This document shows, piece by piece, positions 21,001 to 27,000 of a DNA stretch of 31,094 bases. The DNA lies in UHGV virus genome UHGV-0087733, one strand, 5' to 3'. This DNA is from a virus. Position 1 is the first letter of the stretch; the number at the start of each line of letters is the position of its first letter. The position numbers are program-made.

Positions 21001-24000
21001 ATCGTCATGACGTTTGGAGAAGAAGTTGGCAACAGCCAGAGATGAAGTAACAGCCTGACCATCAACGATGGCAATTTCAGGTTGAGTGAGGGTTGGGATC
21101 GTAGCCATGATGGCAGCCTCTTTGGTGATTTTTAATAACTCACCACCAAGGCTTTCCACGACCTTATTGGTGGTGAGACGTACAGGGGTGGAAATACCGG
21201 TCACCAAAGAACCCGGCCCAACCGAAGTTGGCCCTGCACGCCCCACCATAATTTGGGCGTAATGCTGCTCATGACACAAAAAAACCGCAAGAGCGCGGTT
21301 GTGCGCTTTGGTGAATTCCGGGTTTCCACGCCCGGCACCCGCTTTATAAGGTGCCTGAACAGTGTAACGTCCCGGAATGGCAGAATCAATGTGCTGGTGG
21401 TCCTTCACACTCAACAAAATCACGCCTGAATTTCCACAAAGGACTAAAGCACTCATGCGGGTAGTCTTTGCGAAGATAGATAACGCGCTGTGTTTCTGGC
21501 TCCCAACGAATAACATGAACATAAAGTCCTCTTCCGTCACGAAACCAGCGGTTAAGTTCCTGCACAACTCGCCCCCCACAGTCAGGTAAAGTTCTCTGTG
21601 GTTACTTACAGCCAGGTGATTTGGTAATCTGCATTCATGCCGTAACAACAGGTGTGCAGCGACACTGGCCACCAGCTGTTGCGACAAACGGTTATTTGCC
21701 GTTAAACTGTTCATGCGTTAGTTTCTCCACAGACACAAAACGCCACGACGCCCGGAGCTGCACACTCGCGGGCGTCACTCTTTTCTGGAGCGCAGAAAAT
21801 TTTGTAGACCAGTGCCGCATGCTCCTGGAGCTTCGAAATTGACAGATACAATTCATCATTAATTGCTGTCTGCTCGTGTGGCTCCACTACCCCATCTTCG
21901 ATTGCCGAACGAATCTGCTTTGAGTAACTCCCGATCTGTTCGATGACTTCCAGCAGGCGCTGGTTTATATCTGCGTTCTCTACTTCCTCAATTTCAGGAA
22001 GCGATACAAACACCCCACCAGCAGACTGTGCGACAGCATCCGCAATGTAGTGAGTGCCAGCAGCGCGCTGTAAAATCATTGCCCATCCCAGCGGGAAAAT
22101 CTGATCGCCATCTACACGAAGGCGGTTGAATAAAGCGTTCTCTGTTACATCCAGCCACTCAGCAGCTTCAGCGTACCCCCCCGGCAACGCCGCGATAGTT
22201 TTTCTGACAGCTTTCACGTACCACTCAGGCTGTTTTTCCACTTTCCAGTGATGCTTACCCACGGCTTACCTCCTGTTCCTGTGGTTTAAACCCATTCTGG
22301 TTTTGGCTAGATTGAAAACGTGCCGGATAAAGAATCTGCATTTCGCTGATTTCACCCTTAAAAAAATTGGCCAGACGTTCTGCAAGATCGATAGATGGAA
22401 TTTGTTCCAGTCTTTCAATACGACTCAGCGTCGCTGGATTGACCTGAACGCCAGCAGCAACATGCTGCAAAGTAAATCCGTGCGCCTTACGCACATTCCG
22501 TAATGGTGATTGCATATGACCTCCACATATTGCGTGATGAGCATATTATTTCACGCAAATATTTTGCGCAAGTTGATTTGCTTAACGCGCAATAAAGAAA
22601 TGTAATAAACGCATGAACATAGGAAATCGAGTCAGACAACTTCGCCAGGCGAAGAACATGAAAATCGCCGATCTCGCTGAAGCAATAGGAGTGGATGCGG
22701 CGAATATCTCACGCCTGGAAACAGGTAAGCAGAAACAATTCACTGAACAAGCCCTGAGTAATATTGCCAGGAGCTTAGGTGTTGATATTGCTGATCTCTT
22801 TACCTCAGACTTCAAAAGTAATACTGTATGTAAAAACAGTATTAGTGAGGATGTTGCGCAGGTGAAGGATGTATTCCGTATTGAAATGCTGGATGTCAGT
22901 GCCAGTGCGGGAAATGGCCTTATCCAGGGCGGTGATGTCATTGATGTGATTCATGCCATTGAATACAGAACTGATAATGCTGTATCGATGTTTGGCGGAC
23001 GACCAGCCAATCACATTAAAGTTATCAACGTTCGTGGGGACAGTATGTGTCCAACCATTGAGCCAGGAGATCTCATCTTCGTTGATGTCAGTATCAATCA
23101 GTTTGATGGAGATGGTATCTATGTATTTGGTTTTGATGATAAAATTTATGTCAAACGACTGCAAATGATACCTGACAAACTACTGGTGATTTCTGATAAC
23201 CAGATTTACCGTGAATGGGGAATTACCAGCGAAAATGAACACCGGTTTATGGTCTTTGGAAAGGTCTTAATCAGCCAGTCACAAACCCTTAAGCGACACA
23301 ATTAACCCTTACCTCCTCATCAATTAGCCACCCGAAGGTGGCTTTTCATTACCCATCAAATTGCATATCTCGCAACAAAATACTTGCACAATGCGCAATT
23401 TCATTTTATCTTTCTTTCCAGACCAACAAACAAGGTACTAACAAAATTTGGTTGTAACACGGCGTATGGCACATGCGTCGTTAGCGGTCTGGGGACGTTA
23501 AAGGGGACAATCCACTCCTTGCTCGGGCAAACAAACCAGGTAGCCGGAATGTGCAAGTCAATGAGGATACTGATAAGACGCCTAACCAGCGTGGCGATTC
23601 GGTTTGACGCCTGGGAAGAGACCAGGGTGCAACGATGAGGGCATTTATGGAACCGCGACAAAGTGTGGTGCCGTAACTGGCTAAGTGCTCTCAGCGTTGT
23701 GGTAATCCGCGAAATGGCGCGGCGGTAAGTATGGCGGGGTTACTCTTTCCCCGTTGAGGACACCGGATTGTCAGGTTGACCATACGCCTGAGTGACAACC
23801 CCACCACAACAGCCACTGCTTTGGCGGTACCAGTTTGTACACTTGCTTCCGGCTGGTACCGCTCTTTTTACAAAACAGAGAAGAGCATCACCGGACGACG
23901 GGCTCATAACCCAATCCATCCGGGCGGCTGCCACCGCAGGTGTTCTTCTCTGTTTTGTGGAGAAACCAACCGACCTTGCAGGGTCGATATGATGAGGAGC

Positions 24001-27000
24001 AGCAAAATGGCTAGCGAACGCAGTACTGATGTGCAGGCATTTATCGGGGAGCTGGACGGCGGCGTATTTGAAACCAAAATCGGCGCTGTTCTCAGTGAAG
24101 TCGCTTCCGGTGTGATGAACACGAAAACCAAAGGTAAGGTCTCGCTCAACCTGGAAATCGAACCGTTTGATGAGAACCGAGTGAAAATCAAACACAAACT
24201 CTCATATGTTCGCCCGACTAACCGCGGGAAAATTTCCGAAGAAGACACCACCGAAACGCCGATGTATGTCAATCGCGGTGGTCGCCTGACTATTCTGCAG
24301 GAAGACCAGGGACAATTACTGACTCTTGCCGGTGAACCTGACGGAAAACTCCGCGCAGCAGGTCGTTAATATCGTTTTTAATAAACTAATTATTCATCTT
24401 ATCACTGAATATCTTTAATATAGTGAGGACTTATTATGTCTCAGAACTTAGACGCAACCGCAATTAATCAAATCCATGCCCTTATTTCTGCTCAGGGTGT
24501 TAATGAAATTATCAGTAAGATTGGTGCCGATGCTGTGGCATTGCCTGAGAATTTCCGCATTCATGATCTGGAAAAATTTAATTTAAATCGTTTCCGTTTC
24601 CGTGGTGCGCTTTCCACTGCCAGCATCGATGACTTTACCCGTTATTCTAAAGATCTTGCAGATGAAGGCACCCGCTGCTTTATCGATGCTGATAATATGC
24701 GTGCCGTCAGTGTGCTTAACCTGGGCACTATTGATGAACCAGGTCACGCAGATAACACCGCCACTCTCAAACTGAAAAAGGCAGCACCGTTCTCTGCTCT
24801 GTTGTCTGTTAATGGCGAGCGTAACTCCCAGAAATCACTGGCAGAATGGATTGAAGACTGGGCCGACTACCTTGTGGGCTTTGATACTAATGGTGACACC
24901 ATTCAGGCAACAAAAGCGGCTGCGGCGGTCCGTAAAATCACGATTGAAGCGAACCAGACCGCTGATTTTGAAGATAATGACTTCAGCGGCAAACGCTCTC
25001 TGATGGAGTCTGTCGAAGCGAAAACCAAAGACATTATGCCAGTGGCATTTGAATTTAAATGCGTTCCGTTTGAAGGCCTGAAAGAACGTCCGTTTAAATT
25101 ACGCCTCAGCATTATCACTGGCGATCGTCCTGTACTGGTTCTGCGCATTATTCAGCTGGAAGCGGTGCAGGAAGAAATGGCTAACGAATTTCGTGATCTG
25201 CTTGTTGAGAAATTCAAAGACAGCAAAGTAGAAACTTTCATTGGTACTTTCAGCGCCTGATTTCATTACTGCAAATGCCCCTGCGGGGGCATTTATGGAA
25301 ACATAATCGACTCAATAATCGCCGGATGGTGAGGGCTTCCTTTTACCAGAATTCAGCGTGATGCAGCACATATACGTGGAGAACAAAATGTCATTTATTA
25401 AAACTTTTTCTGGGAAGCATTTTTATTATGACAAGATAAATAAAGACGACATCGTGATTAACGATATCGCGGTTTCCCTTTCAAATATCTGTCGCTTTGC
25501 AGGACATCTTTCACACTTCTACAGCGTCGCCCAACATGCGGTGCTTTGCAGCCAACTGGTACCGCAGGAATTTGCTTTTGAAGCGTTAATGCATGATGCA
25601 ACAGAAGCGTATTGTCAGGACATCCCCGCTCCACTGAAACGCCTTCTTCCTGACTATAAACGGATGGAAGAAAAAATAGACGCCGTAATCCGTGAGAAAT
25701 ACGGGTTACCCCCGGTTATGAGCACGCCTGTGAAATATGCCGATCTCATCATGCTGGCAACTGAACGCCGCGATCTCGGGCTTGATGATGGCTCTTTCTG
25801 GCCAGTACTGGAAGGTATCCCGGCAACAGAGATGTTCAAAGTTATTCCACTGGCTCCGGGCCATGCCTACGGGATGTTTATGGAACGTTTTAACGAGTTA
25901 TCGGAGTTACGCAAATGCGCATGAATGTTTTCGAAATGGAAGGGTTTCTTCACGGGAGATGTGTACCACGAGACCTGAAAGTGAATGAAACGGATGCTGA
26001 ATACCTGGTGCGTAAATTCGATGCGCTTGAAGCTAAATGTGCAGCACAGGAAAACAAAGTAATACCAGTATCAGTTGAACTGCCACCAGCAAATGAAAGT
26101 GTTCTGTTATTTGATGCTAACGGAGAAGGCTGGCTGATTGGCTGGCGTTCTCTCTGGTACACCTGGGGACAAAAAGAAACCGGAGAATGGCAGTGGACAT
26201 TTCAGATCGGGGACCTTGAAAATATTAATATTACTCACTGGGCAGTAATGCCAAAAGCACCGGAGGCTGGAGCATAATGACCACTTACACCGATAAGGAA
26301 CAGATTAAAGAAATCAAAGAACGAATCGGCAGCCTAGACGTGCGAGACAATGTTGAGCGCCTTGCTTATGAAATTGCTCTGGCATCACTGGAAGCAGAGC
26401 CGGTGGCGTGGCTTCATTCAGACAATGGCTTAGGTATTCCGGCAATAACCAGGAGCAAAAACATTGCTGACAGTTGGTTATCAAAGGGCTGGTATGTTCA
26501 GCCGCTATATATGGCTCAGCCAGTGTCGGTGGTGCCGGATGCTCTTCCGTCTTTAAATAATGGCATAGTCGGCTTTGATGAAGGCTGGAACGCCTGCCGC
26601 GCCGCCATGCTTCAGAGTCAGGGGGAAGGCAACCCTCATGTAACCCCGGCTCGCCTGCCTGGTGGTTTTACCATTGAGGATGCGAAGGAGTTACATGAAG
26701 ACCTGGTTCGCAGCCACATAAGCCAGGCTTTAAGTGGCGAAAAGATGAAAAAGAAAGATCGCGATGCTGATTTGCGCTGGATTCATGGCGTTATAGTTCA
26801 GGCTGCGTGGTTTGTAAAAGCGTCACTGGAGCAGGCCGCGCTATCGGGCACTCCTCCGGTAACTCCGGATGCTTGGATAAGCTGTAGTGAGCGAATGCCG
26901 AAAGGGTATGCTGATGTGTTAGTGACCGACGGCGAGCATGTCGAGGTTAAATGGTGGGATGAATCTGGGTATTGGAATAGTTGGACGGAACTTAACTCAG

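Follow-up and report, generated by a model that had tools for sequence, protein, structure and literature searches.

The interval between the repressor gene and yfdP in virus genome UHGV-0087733 (positions 23306-24006 of the window, the whole 31,094-nt stretch analysed) consists of no fewer than three conserved, folded non-coding RNAs arranged in tandem, together with a DicF-like small-RNA terminator; possible functions are proposed below. Four mobile RNA modules, A, E, D and C, lie on its plus strand. Paired cells made up 87–99% of the alignments of A, E and C versus at most 56% in slid controls, and compensatory changes were found in each of the three; the modules move independently and were found separately in other genomes. 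At least one piece of the interval was present in 4738 of 5426 E. coli genomes and at least 80% of it in only 999. No match for the folded modules A, E and C was obtained in an Rfam 15 scan. The initial annotation proposed one structured leader element here. Its call of structured RNA stands and was understated, given covariation in three separate modules; the single element does not. Modules A and E had been overlooked, as had the mosaic modularity of the interval and its homology to the dicF loci of K-12 and P1. The interval is best explained not as one regulatory leader but as a series of structured modules (A, a linker hairpin, E, D and C) that are independent of one another and have been shuffled horizontally.

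Gene content and boundaries of the interval

RefSeq/PGAP called nothing from the repressor stop (23305) to the yfdP ATG (24007) and a Pfam search of every ORF in 23306-24006 gave no match, in agreement with the initial view that the stretch carries no gene. Its GC fraction of ~0.55 versus 0.40–0.45 in the flanking genes contradicts the earlier description as GC-normal. The prophage has no N-like gene, its sole antiterminator being a Q-like late one (15094-15846).

The intrinsic terminator of the cI-like repressor gene was located by terminator scan at 23326-23349 on the plus strand (AGCCACCCGAAGGTGGCT followed by TTTTC). A putative early-left (PL-like) operator/promoter region follows on the same strand at 23355-23412, proposed from an operator-like inverted repeat (23355-23375/23384-23404) and from the positions of candidate hexamers (-35 TTGCAC, 23384-23389; -10 TATCTT, 23407-23412; 17-nt spacer); its match to consensus is weak, and a consensus promoter scan did not pick it up. 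At the other end (23971-24009, plus strand) lie a small folded hairpin (23971-23986), a Shine-Dalgarno motif (GAGGAG, 23994-23999) and the RefSeq yfdP start codon (24007-24009).

Module A and the linker hairpin

Module A (23457-23650, plus strand) is a conserved RNA of ~190 nt with two proposed pseudoknots, defined by covariation. Its helices are H1 (23460-23464/23476-23480), H2 (23484-23491/23537-23544), H4 (23578-23581/23589-23592) and H5 (23610-23614/23622-23626). Across 37 diverse homologues 99.3% of cells were paired and 10 pairs had changed on both sides, with slid controls at or below 46%. Pseudoknot PK1 would join GCACAT (23469-23474) to ATGTGC (23549-23554) and stays proposed because it never varies, apart from a single mismatch in two genomic copies; PK2 would join 23584-23587 to 23601-23604. 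Module A had no match in the Rfam scan and was found also in P1, D6, epsilon15-like phages and ten Enterobacterales genera. Among 120 distinct contexts, tRNA-Arg(UCU) lay downstream of A in 27, mostly from ~+165 of the A anchor, module E lay at +157 in 21, and tRNA-Met(CAT) lay just upstream in 14. With its invariant core and two proposed pseudoknots, A resembles a domain that binds a ligand, a protein or RNA polymerase more than it does passive cargo, which counts against the processing model given below.

The linker hairpin, or slot 1 (23636-23693, plus strand), consists of a stem (GAGGGCA, 23637-23643; TGCTCTC, 23686-23692) around a variable insert, with a minimum free energy of -24.5 kcal/mol (z = -3.2). 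By eye, both arms of the stem were also seen elsewhere, with a compensatory change in K. pneumoniae (GAGAGCA/UGCUCUC to GAGAGUA/UACUCUC).

Module E and its slot

Module E (23696-23810), defined by covariation and homology, folds as a cloverleaf-like four-way junction with helices P0 (23696-23703/23803-23810), P1 (23707-23711/23718-23722), P2 (23723-23726/23763-23766), P3 (23735-23739/23749-23753) and P4 (23769-23774/23794-23799), and a pseudoknot between GTATGG (23729-23734) and CCATAC (23781-23786). It lies on the plus strand, the only one that its frequent G-U pairs fit. Among 68 distinct sequences 96.3% of cells were paired, with 9 covarying pairs and slid controls at or below 56%. The CGGGG/CCCCG hairpin that had been placed ~50 nt upstream of yfdP is helix P3 (23735-23753), ~255 nt 5' of that gene.

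The unannotated K-12 Qin sequence directly 5' of dicF shares 93% identity with module E, which is also homologous to the "dicF-like region" of P1 and P7. A search of 99 further loci with its covariance model gave no divergent copies, and the family is narrow. Neither ARAGORN nor the Rfam tRNA model recognised E, and no conserved NCCA was found 3' of it. In related cassettes its slot is filled by tRNA-Arg or an STnc100-like RNA; either STnc100-like RNAs or tRNA-like RNAs whose T-arms are canonical lie within the same GTTGTGG...CCACAAC stem in ST64B and other genera. By eye, an intrinsic terminator lies ~25–100 nt 3' of E and is followed by the further operon in the window, the Qin type, P1, P7 and F1055.

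Module D, a candidate small RNA and terminator

Module D (23811-23868, plus strand) was delimited by fold, inverted repeat and alignment to DicF, and comprises a 12-nt single-stranded spacer, a hairpin (23823-23863) and a T-run (23864-23868). The GGTACC hairpin reported initially is real, with a 10–13 bp stem and a T-run after it: its arms (23824-23833/23853-23862) are complementary at 10 of 10 positions, and the fold has a 13-bp stem (-21.5 kcal/mol, z = -3.1) followed by CTCTTTTT. Module D aligns with DicF along the 5' arm TTTGGCGGTAyCAGTTT and lacks the UUUCUGGUGACG seed; the Rfam DicF model, which scored 76.7 bits for the K-12 control, gave no match at D. A small-RNA role would fit this hairpin, given its DicF position and shared 5' arm; since the Rfam model fails and the 5' seed is missing, that role is argued from position and shape.

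Module C, a three-way junction

The 15-bp inverted repeat of the initial annotation is exact (ACAAAACAGAGAAGA, 23870-23884; TCTTCTCTGTTTTGT, 23944-23958) and closes module C (23869-23959, plus strand), a three-way junction supported by fold and covariation. The pairing is longer than had been stated: the closing stem is 18 bp with one G-U pair (23870-23887/23941-23958), or 21 bp in the minimum-free-energy fold (23869-23889/23939-23959). By calculation, chance would produce ~1e-4 perfect 15-mer inverted repeats spanning no more than 150 nt in a 700-nt stretch. The fold has -47.5 kcal/mol (z = -7.1), and 0 of 200 shuffles were as stable. Inside the junction, one hairpin (23891-23895/23919-23923) bears the loop GACGGGCUCAUAACCCAAUCCA and the second, variable hairpin lies at 23924-23937. 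At 23900-23912 is an initiator-tRNA-like anticodon stem-loop, GGGCUCAUAACCC, identical at 13 of 13 positions to E. coli tRNA-fMet. Over 24 homologues 86.6% of cells were paired with 10 covarying pairs; the stems around the loop covary, whereas the loop itself hardly varies. Further copies of C follow the terminator in ST64B and, in Klebsiella phages, stand directly 3' of tRNA genes downstream of Q, in late-operon leaders.

RNase III processing hairpins are found in phage early mRNAs, as in the lambda N leader and the T7 early sites. Module C resembles them in its ~21-bp stem and its place in an untranslated region ~50 nt 5' of the first early-operon gene, and it is plausible that the predicted 21-bp stem, of RNase III substrate size, is a processing site. 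C differs from those hairpins in its conserved three-way junction, its nearly invariant loop and its late-operon copies after tRNAs, and so is more than a cleavage signal.

Proposed processing of the transcript

In the preferred reading, whose probability is judged evenly balanced, the interval forms the untranslated 5' part of an early-left transcript under repressor control and is a polycistronic non-coding RNA precursor cut by host RNases, in which D would be both a small RNA and a partial terminator. Upon derepression, RNA polymerase would transcribe A and E and arrive at the D hairpin and U-run, where part of the transcripts would stop, leaving an A-E-D precursor. Host RNases would then cleave the short single-stranded joints between modules, RNase E acting at the E-D joint, in the way that it does at the DicF 5' end and directly 3' of tRNAs, and RNase III cutting the 21-bp stem of C. 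The products would be compact stable RNAs and a DicF-type, terminator-ended small RNA with a new seed; read-through of D would give transcripts with C that are translated into YfdP, YfdQ and YfdR. DicF itself has its 5' end made by RNase E and its 3' end by termination or RNase III (PMC5069750). Terminators just 3' of proline tRNAs are described as removed by RNase E (PMC5291269), and the layout of such substrates, a tRNA-like structure, short spacer and terminator hairpin, is that seen here. Different contexts have different genes downstream (yfdP, dicB, ban, lysis genes), an argument against cis-regulation specific to any one gene. Were D an efficient terminator, the five downstream genes would need a read-through mechanism, and the processing model supplies none.

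Alternative explanations

The main rival, itself rather unlikely, is that A and/or E are cis-acting, factor-independent processive antiterminators like the HK022 put RNAs (putL, putR), the nascent fold binding RNA polymerase for read-through of D and later terminators and replacing the missing N. Put is a two-stem RNA of ~70 nt. Antitermination would be consistent with the anatomy, in which structured RNAs stand ahead of an intrinsic terminator in a prophage with only the Q-like late antiterminator and no N-like gene. HK022 likewise has no N-type protein, and its put RNAs are structured, lie in early transcripts just 3' of a repressor-controlled promoter and precede terminators; putL sits just 3' of PL (PMC9378689), which is paralleled by A starting 8–10 nt past a TATCTT -10-like hexamer in some contigs. 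In P1 and P7, E comes directly after Pban, a promoter controlled by C1, and precedes a terminator; a terminator stands just 3' of E in all lineages examined, with operon genes after it, and two separate A from the next ORF in the epsilon15-like phage TP9. However, the HK022 20–33 kb region containing putL and putR showed neither sequence similarity nor a match to the E covariance model, and the architecture and size are unlike put, E being a four-way junction and A having two proposed pseudoknots. E lies >1 kb from the promoter in Qin, after ydfABC, while A in P1 lies 2.3 kb downstream of E's terminator and so cannot act on it. Exchange with tRNAs also sets the modules apart from put, and that E swaps with a true tRNA or an STnc100-like RNA is odd for a polymerase-binding element. 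Promoter-like sites within 110 nt 5' of A were not clearly enriched (23 of 86 contexts vs 17 of 86 shuffled).

An improbable reading makes E, C and perhaps A mimics or decoys of tRNA that act in trans and titrate a host tRNA-directed factor early in infection; MetRS, or a VapC-type nuclease cutting tRNA-fMet, are possible targets of the C loop. The complete tRNA-fMet match of GGGCUCAUAACCC, the near invariance of the loop amid covarying stems, E's tRNA slot, cloverleaf topology and GTGG...CCAC ends (common with the neighbouring tRNA-Arg acceptor stem), the T-armed tRNA-like RNAs of related cassettes and the linkage to real phage tRNA genes favour mimicry, whereas ARAGORN and the Rfam tRNA model recognise neither E nor C, only three base pairs flank the CAU loop, loop or stem positions are changed in the ST64B and Klebsiella copies, no NCCA is conserved after E and no partner protein is encoded nearby. 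Slighter still is the probability that A is a ligand-sensing riboswitch or ribozyme setting the fate of the early-left transcript. Its core is highly conserved, with unpaired stretches that never vary, and is accompanied by two proposed pseudoknots and by peripheral hairpins that do vary, the usual aptamer or ribozyme look, but no Rfam riboswitch or ribozyme model matched at an E-value ≤10 save a spurious 14.5-bit hairpin-ribozyme match on the opposite strand, and there is no fixed expression platform: A is followed variously by a tRNA, E, an STnc100-like RNA or ban, and an interchangeable module stands between A and the terminator. Protein coding is highly improbable. The candidates are a minus-strand 151-aa ORF (23743-24195; phrog_3651, E = 3e-98), a plus-strand 66-aa ORF (23792-23989; phrog_33599, 5e-17) and a 9-codon mini-ORF (23647-23676), MEPRQSVVP, retained with synonymous changes in TP9; hypothetical proteins are annotated here in some phage records, although nothing is called by PGAP or found in Pfam. 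The long antisense frame crosses module C in another reading frame in ST64B, and the products do not align; where it overlaps yfdP, 40 of 71 substitutions fall at yfdP third positions, the first positions of the antisense frame. Hairpin lengths change by non-multiples of three, paired positions change in compensation, translation of the 66-aa ORF would have to pass a terminator hairpin, and the mini-ORF is absent from most A lineages.

Relation to known phage loci

As in phage tRNA islands, the modules stand beside or replace phage tRNA genes at fixed spacing; unlike in those islands, neither E nor C counts as a tRNA by ARAGORN or Rfam and the CCA end is not conserved. STnc100 (Rfam RF02076) and PasD, prophage enterobacterial small RNAs, are described as base-pairing and as having late-region contexts (bioRxiv 10.64898/2026.05.13.724894). 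STnc100-like RNAs fill the GTTGTGG...CCACAAC-closed slot of E in ST64B and several genera; the fold of E differs, and the STnc100 model gave no match on the window.

The Qin dicBF leader of K-12 (ydfABC, long untranslated region, DicF, dicB) likewise has a repressor gene, a same-strand early operon and a long untranslated stretch ending in a terminator-type small RNA, then genes. The 107 nt directly 5' of dicF are the stretch 93% identical to E, and the DicF hairpin 5' arm is common to D. In contrast, D has no RF00039 match and differs from DicF in seed and loop, Qin has ydfABC in place of module A, and an STnc100-like RNA (34 bits, under the 47-bit gathering score) adjoins DicF on its 3' side, where module C stands here. 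In the cited account of DicF the small RNA alone is described, and no structured element upstream of it (PMC5069750).

In the P1/P7 ban operon leader (GenBank AF234172), the similarity region annotated in the P1 record covers 68791-68892 only, half of E and the terminator, and is given no structure or function. E is 75–81% identical there and lies directly 3' of Pban, with a terminator and tRNA genes after it; module A lies farther down the same operon, directly 3' of tRNA-Ile/Met(CAT) and 5' of ban. Unlike in the window, the two modules stand there in the opposite order and apart from each other: E, terminator, tRNAs, tciABC, tRNA, A, ban.

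Setting of the interval and search for its parts

The E. coli APEC E19025 chromosome carries a prophage of the lambdoid mEp460, cdtI and SfV type to which the window is 100% identical. Its cI-like S24 repressor gene (22613–23305, plus strand) lies opposite minus-strand cro-like and ymfL genes. The next annotated plus-strand gene is yfdP (24007–24369), with yfdQ, yfdR and two DUF551 genes behind it; the interval between the repressor and yfdP was therefore taken as the untranslated beginning of the early-left operon. A Q-like antiterminator is encoded at 15094–15846; no N-like gene is present among the annotated prophage genes. 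The initial annotation had described the interval as a gene-free leader of normal GC content. PGAP indeed annotates no gene within 23306–24006 and Pfam searches were empty, but the interval is GC-rich, at ~0.55 over 23450–24050 against 0.40–0.45 in the repressor and yfdQ genes on either side.

Pieces of the interval were matched by BLAST in 4738 of 5426 complete E. coli genomes, and 80% or more of it in only 999 of these, with sub-segments matching separately; phage records showed the same piecewise matching. The interval is a mosaic of four modules on the plus strand, designated A, E, D and C in their order of occurrence, each traced by following its piece. The structured RNA that had been suspected here is real and richer than proposed, with several conserved folds in place of one, and the covariation analysis suggested as a check revealed compensatory changes in A, E and C. 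The Rfam scan suggested alongside it gave known families elsewhere in the window only: at gathering thresholds Rfam 15 returned C4 and IsrK, both outside the interval, and at E values up to 10 nothing credible for A, E or C within it. In 13 loci homologous to the interval the only Rfam families found were tRNA, C4, IsrK and int-alpA.

Module A

Module A (~23457–23650) was followed with an invariant 19-mer, which retrieved >120 IMG/VR loci, and with a 26-mer from its 3' domain, which had 15 matches in species-representative genomes. These genomes belong to Kosakonia, Phytobacter, Citrobacter, Kluyvera, Klebsiella, Erwinia, Pseudocitrobacter, Enterobacter, Scandinavium and Pseudescherichia. In P1 and D6, A is situated between tRNA-Met/Ile(CAT), which it directly follows, and ban; in the epsilon15-like phages phiV10, TP9, SPN1S, Tyrion, PAT1 and a Klebsiella phage, it lies in a leader opposite the structural genes. 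One perfect copy was found on a 1.7-kb MAG contig labelled "Bacillota bacterium" (L337), all other matches being in Enterobacterales, and mis-binning or contamination is the likely origin of that copy.

The structure of A was evaluated on 37 sequences with <93% mutual identity. The proposed pairs were formed in 99.3% of cells, against at most 46% when the partners were slid, and ten pairs (75 cells) were changed on both sides. Two pseudoknots were proposed. PK2 covaries (CACC/GGUG to AACC/GGUU); PK1 is invariant and carries one mismatch in two genomic copies, and is for these reasons considered unproven. RNAalifold placed a nested long-range helix where the H1 hairpin was drawn; this helix was set aside because pair 8–20 of H1 shows perfect covariation, with AU in 19 sequences and GC in 18. 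Sigma-70-like promoters were predicted no more than 110 nt upstream of A in 23 of 86 contexts, compared with 17 for shuffled sequence and 8 for a control region.

Module E

Module E (23696–23810) is 93% identical to DNA between ydfC and dicB in Qin, the dicF-bearing prophage of E. coli K-12, where the copy stops 17 nt short of DicF. Its identity to P1 and P7 DNA is 75–81%; there it begins within a few tens of bases of the C1-controlled Pban promoter, in a region labelled in GenBank as "dicF-like region" and nothing more. Compensatory changes were visible in the alignment by eye and were then counted formally on 20 sequences. On an alignment of 68 distinct sequences made with a covariance model, 96.3% of cells were paired, against at most 56% with partners slid; nine pairs had changes on both sides and none of 500 shuffles was as good. 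The fold has three arms on a closing stem, and a 6-bp pseudoknot joins the P2/P3 internal loop to the P4 loop (99% paired, one covarying pair). E was read on the plus strand because its many G-U pairs would become A-C mismatches on the other. When 99 loci that had been picked independently of E, HK022 among them, were searched with the covariance model, no divergent copy was found, and E is therefore a narrow family. ARAGORN predicted no tRNA genes in the window, and the Rfam tRNA model (RF00005) had no match in the interval at E values up to 10; true tRNAs in related loci scored 58–75 bits with this model.

The P3 loop of E (23740–23748) is pyrimidine-rich (UUAYUCYUU) and often contains CUCC or UCCU, a likeness to the anti-Shine-Dalgarno sequence, and the stem beneath it varies in sequence and length. 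When inspected by eye, neither this loop nor the conserved loop of module C had convincing complementarity to the yfdP ribosome-binding site. A CGGGG/CCCCG hairpin previously placed close to the yfdP start is located at 23735–23753.

Module D and its relation to DicF

Module D (23811–23868) directly follows E, which is the position of DicF in Qin, and ends as an intrinsic terminator of hairpin and U-run. The GGTACC hairpin reported earlier was recovered, with a repeat matching at 10 of 10 positions and a folded stem of 13 bp preceding the U-run (−21.5 kcal/mol, z = −3.1). In a pairwise alignment D and DicF have in common TTTGGCGGTAyCAGTTT and the U-tail, and differ in the loop and in the 5' seed, that of DicF being UUUCUGGUGACG. 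The DicF model RF00039 (threshold 48 bits) had no match within 23200–24100 at E values up to 10; K-12 DicF, as a control, scored 76.7 bits. The context of D is of the DicF type: a terminator-ended element of a prophage early operon, located 3' of a conserved upstream element. A DicF sRNA proper would also bind Hfq, have a 5' end made by RNase E, and repress ftsZ among other targets. An intrinsic terminator was found ~25–100 nt 3' of E in all five E lineages read, and the terminators of P1/P7 and F1055 are unrelated in sequence.

An STnc100-like RNA (34 bits; gathering score 47) was observed just 3' of DicF in K-12 Qin (locus L001, 4196–4336), and a similar one in ST64B (L243, ~1830–1960) in the slot used by E in the window; the STnc100 model RF02076 had no match in the window. 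In P1 (L006), module A is followed by TTTTCTGGTGATGA (4971–4985), which resembles the DicF 5' seed, and by a 14-codon upstream ORF (5014–5058) before ban, the stop of which overlaps the ban start (TAATG).

Module C

The 15-bp inverted repeat of the initial annotation has exactly matching arms; pairing continues to 18 bp if one G-U is admitted, and the minimum-free-energy fold has a 21-bp closing stem (23869–23889 with 23939–23959). The fold of module C (23869–23959) has −47.5 kcal/mol and z = −7.1, and none of 200 shuffles was as stable. In ST64B, C stands after that phage's own terminator and a G-C pair of the stem is replaced by A-U, a compensatory change. In Klebsiella phages GZ7 and Chronis it stands right after tRNA genes, 3' of Q, with another closing stem and another second hairpin. 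The loop pattern led to >120 further loci. Over 24 representatives 86.6% of cells were paired, a figure that includes misaligned Klebsiella 3' arms, and 10 pairs covaried. At about two helical turns, the stem is of RNase III substrate size, and compensatory changes have preserved it. The loop is nearly invariant and includes GGGCUCAUAACCC, which is identical to positions 29–41 of E. coli initiator tRNA. The initiator tRNA sequence used for this comparison matched, at 100%, a tRNA-Met gene that all 5426 E. coli genomes contain, the median being four places in each.

Cassette organization

Between A and E lies a linker hairpin (23636–23693, plus strand; z = −3.2) with covarying arms, which precedes a slot of variable content. 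Of the 120 distinct contexts of A, 27 had tRNA-Arg(UCU) 3' of A, mostly starting at ~+165 from the A anchor, 21 had E beginning at +157, and 14 had tRNA-Met(CAT) just 5' of A. The order in TP9 is A, tRNA-Arg, ~40 nt and a DicF-like terminator. In ST64B and in several genera the GTTGTGG...CCACAAC stem that closes the slot of E surrounds an STnc100-like or a tRNA-like RNA, the latter with a canonical GGTTCGAnTCC T-arm and missed by ARAGORN. Since tRNAs, STnc100-like and tRNA-like RNAs are found at its place, the slot of E is considered to hold interchangeable stable RNAs. The cassette thus reads A, linker hairpin, slot (E, STnc100-like RNA or tRNA), terminator sRNA and C; among its parts, DicF and STnc100 are simply two that have names.

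RNAs of ~150 nt were also observed 3' of A in K. pneumoniae ATCC 13883 (L332) and in three other loci (L328, L334, L340). These combine an acceptor-like stem of 7 bp with a canonical T-arm, e.g. CTGGTTCGACTCCAG, and were called neither tRNA nor tmRNA by ARAGORN.

Coding alternatives

A conserved protein gene found here by homology had been named as evidence against a structured RNA. PHROGs searches matched a minus-strand 151-aa ORF (phrog_3651, 3e-98) and also a plus-strand 66-aa ORF; Pfam was empty, and the PHROG matches look, from sequence comparison, like annotation artefacts. In ST64B the long antisense open frame runs through C in a different frame, and its product does not align with that of the window ORF. 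Substitutions in the overlap with yfdP number 11, 20 and 40 at the first, second and third yfdP codon positions, and the variation in the hairpins of the interval consists of compensatory pairs and of length differences not divisible by three. On the Pfam, PHROGs, ST64B frame and codon-position results together the coding hypothesis was rejected, and protein coding by the interval is considered scarcely credible.

The family phrog_3651 (162 aa, unknown function) was apparently built on the ORF at 23743–24195 (minus strand), antisense to yfdP and C, and is probably an artefact because the frame is not kept in ST64B. A nine-codon mini-ORF, MEPRQSVVP (23647–23676, plus strand), lies within the linker hairpin with GAGGG upstream; TP9 has kept it, apart from a V-to-A replacement and two synonymous changes, and it is absent from most A lineages.

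Function of the modules

The modules move independently and precede unrelated genes (yfdP, dicB, ban or lysis genes, depending on context) and so do not act as cis-regulators of one particular gene; general cis-acting elements and trans-acting cargo are the two options. We give about an even chance to the interval being a polycistronic ncRNA precursor, in which D would be a partial terminator and an sRNA at once. This model is favored because the slot is common to tRNAs and STnc100-like RNAs, because of the closing helices and single-stranded joints, and because DicF is itself processed, by RNase E and RNase III (PMC5069750). A further precedent is that RNase E removes terminators located 3' of tRNAs (PMC5291269).

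The main rival is antitermination by A and/or E in the manner of putL and putR, the processive antiterminator RNAs of HK022, which is rather unlikely. The position of the modules ahead of terminators, in an early operon 3' of a promoter and in a prophage without N, is of the put type. However, comparison of the leader with HK022 20–33 kb by blastn was empty, HK022 had no match to the E covariance model, and both the module order in P1 and the interchangeability of E speak against it. The folds of A and E also differ from put, a two-stem RNA of ~70 nt (PMC9378689). A put RNA is defined by read-through of terminators in cis that depends on the zinc-binding domain of the RNAP beta-prime subunit. 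That A, possibly with E, represents a new class of nascent RNA, unrelated to put, that would confer termination resistance on RNA polymerase with no phage protein involved is likewise rather unlikely. It would constitute a second put-like system heading ncRNA and tRNA arrays in Enterobacterales prophages, P1 and epsilon15-like phages, and would account for delayed-early expression in N-less lambdoid phages (SfV, ST64B, mEp460 type) and for dicB expression beyond the DicF terminator in E. coli K-12. In another version of the termination-resistance model, E and C would be tRNA-mimic decoys against host tRNA-directed defences. E resembles tRNA in cloverleaf topology and gene position alone, and tRNA-mimic decoys in general are judged improbable; that A is a riboswitch or ribozyme is judged more improbable again.

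Relation to described RNAs

A, E and C fall outside every Rfam 15 family. They were found undescribed in the literature on dicF antitermination, dicF-like elements, P1 ban and phage structured-RNA catalogues, the P1 "dicF-like region" annotation being the only prior trace found. DicF, STnc100 and Pas sRNAs, and put are published (PMC5069750, bioRxiv 10.64898/2026.05.13.724894, PMC9378689), and A, E and C are not part of these reports; a 2023 catalogue of ~10,000 unnamed phage RNA candidates (PMC10690425) may include them. The modules are real new RNA families in a recognisable kind of system, the function of which we infer. The three covariation-supported folds lie in very well-studied DNA, E beside K-12 dicF and at the head of the P1 ban operon, and A is spread over P1, epsilon15-like phages and prophages of at least 10 enterobacterial genera. 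Their anatomy provides testable hypotheses for DicF biogenesis, for early expression in N-less lambdoid phages, and for why phages join odd tRNA-like RNAs to real tRNA genes. The modules also account for many "hypothetical proteins" annotated over them, such as phrog_3651, and new RNA family models could readily be built from A, E and C.

Elsewhere in the window, C4 antisense RNA (83.6 bits) and IsrK RNA (67 bits) were identified by Rfam at 21166–21354 (minus strand), in a layout resembling P1 immI (c4-ant) and Gifsy-1 isrK-anrP. The annotated 383-aa Rha/antirepressor CDS (20563–21714) contains both in its 5' third, and its start is probably over-extended.
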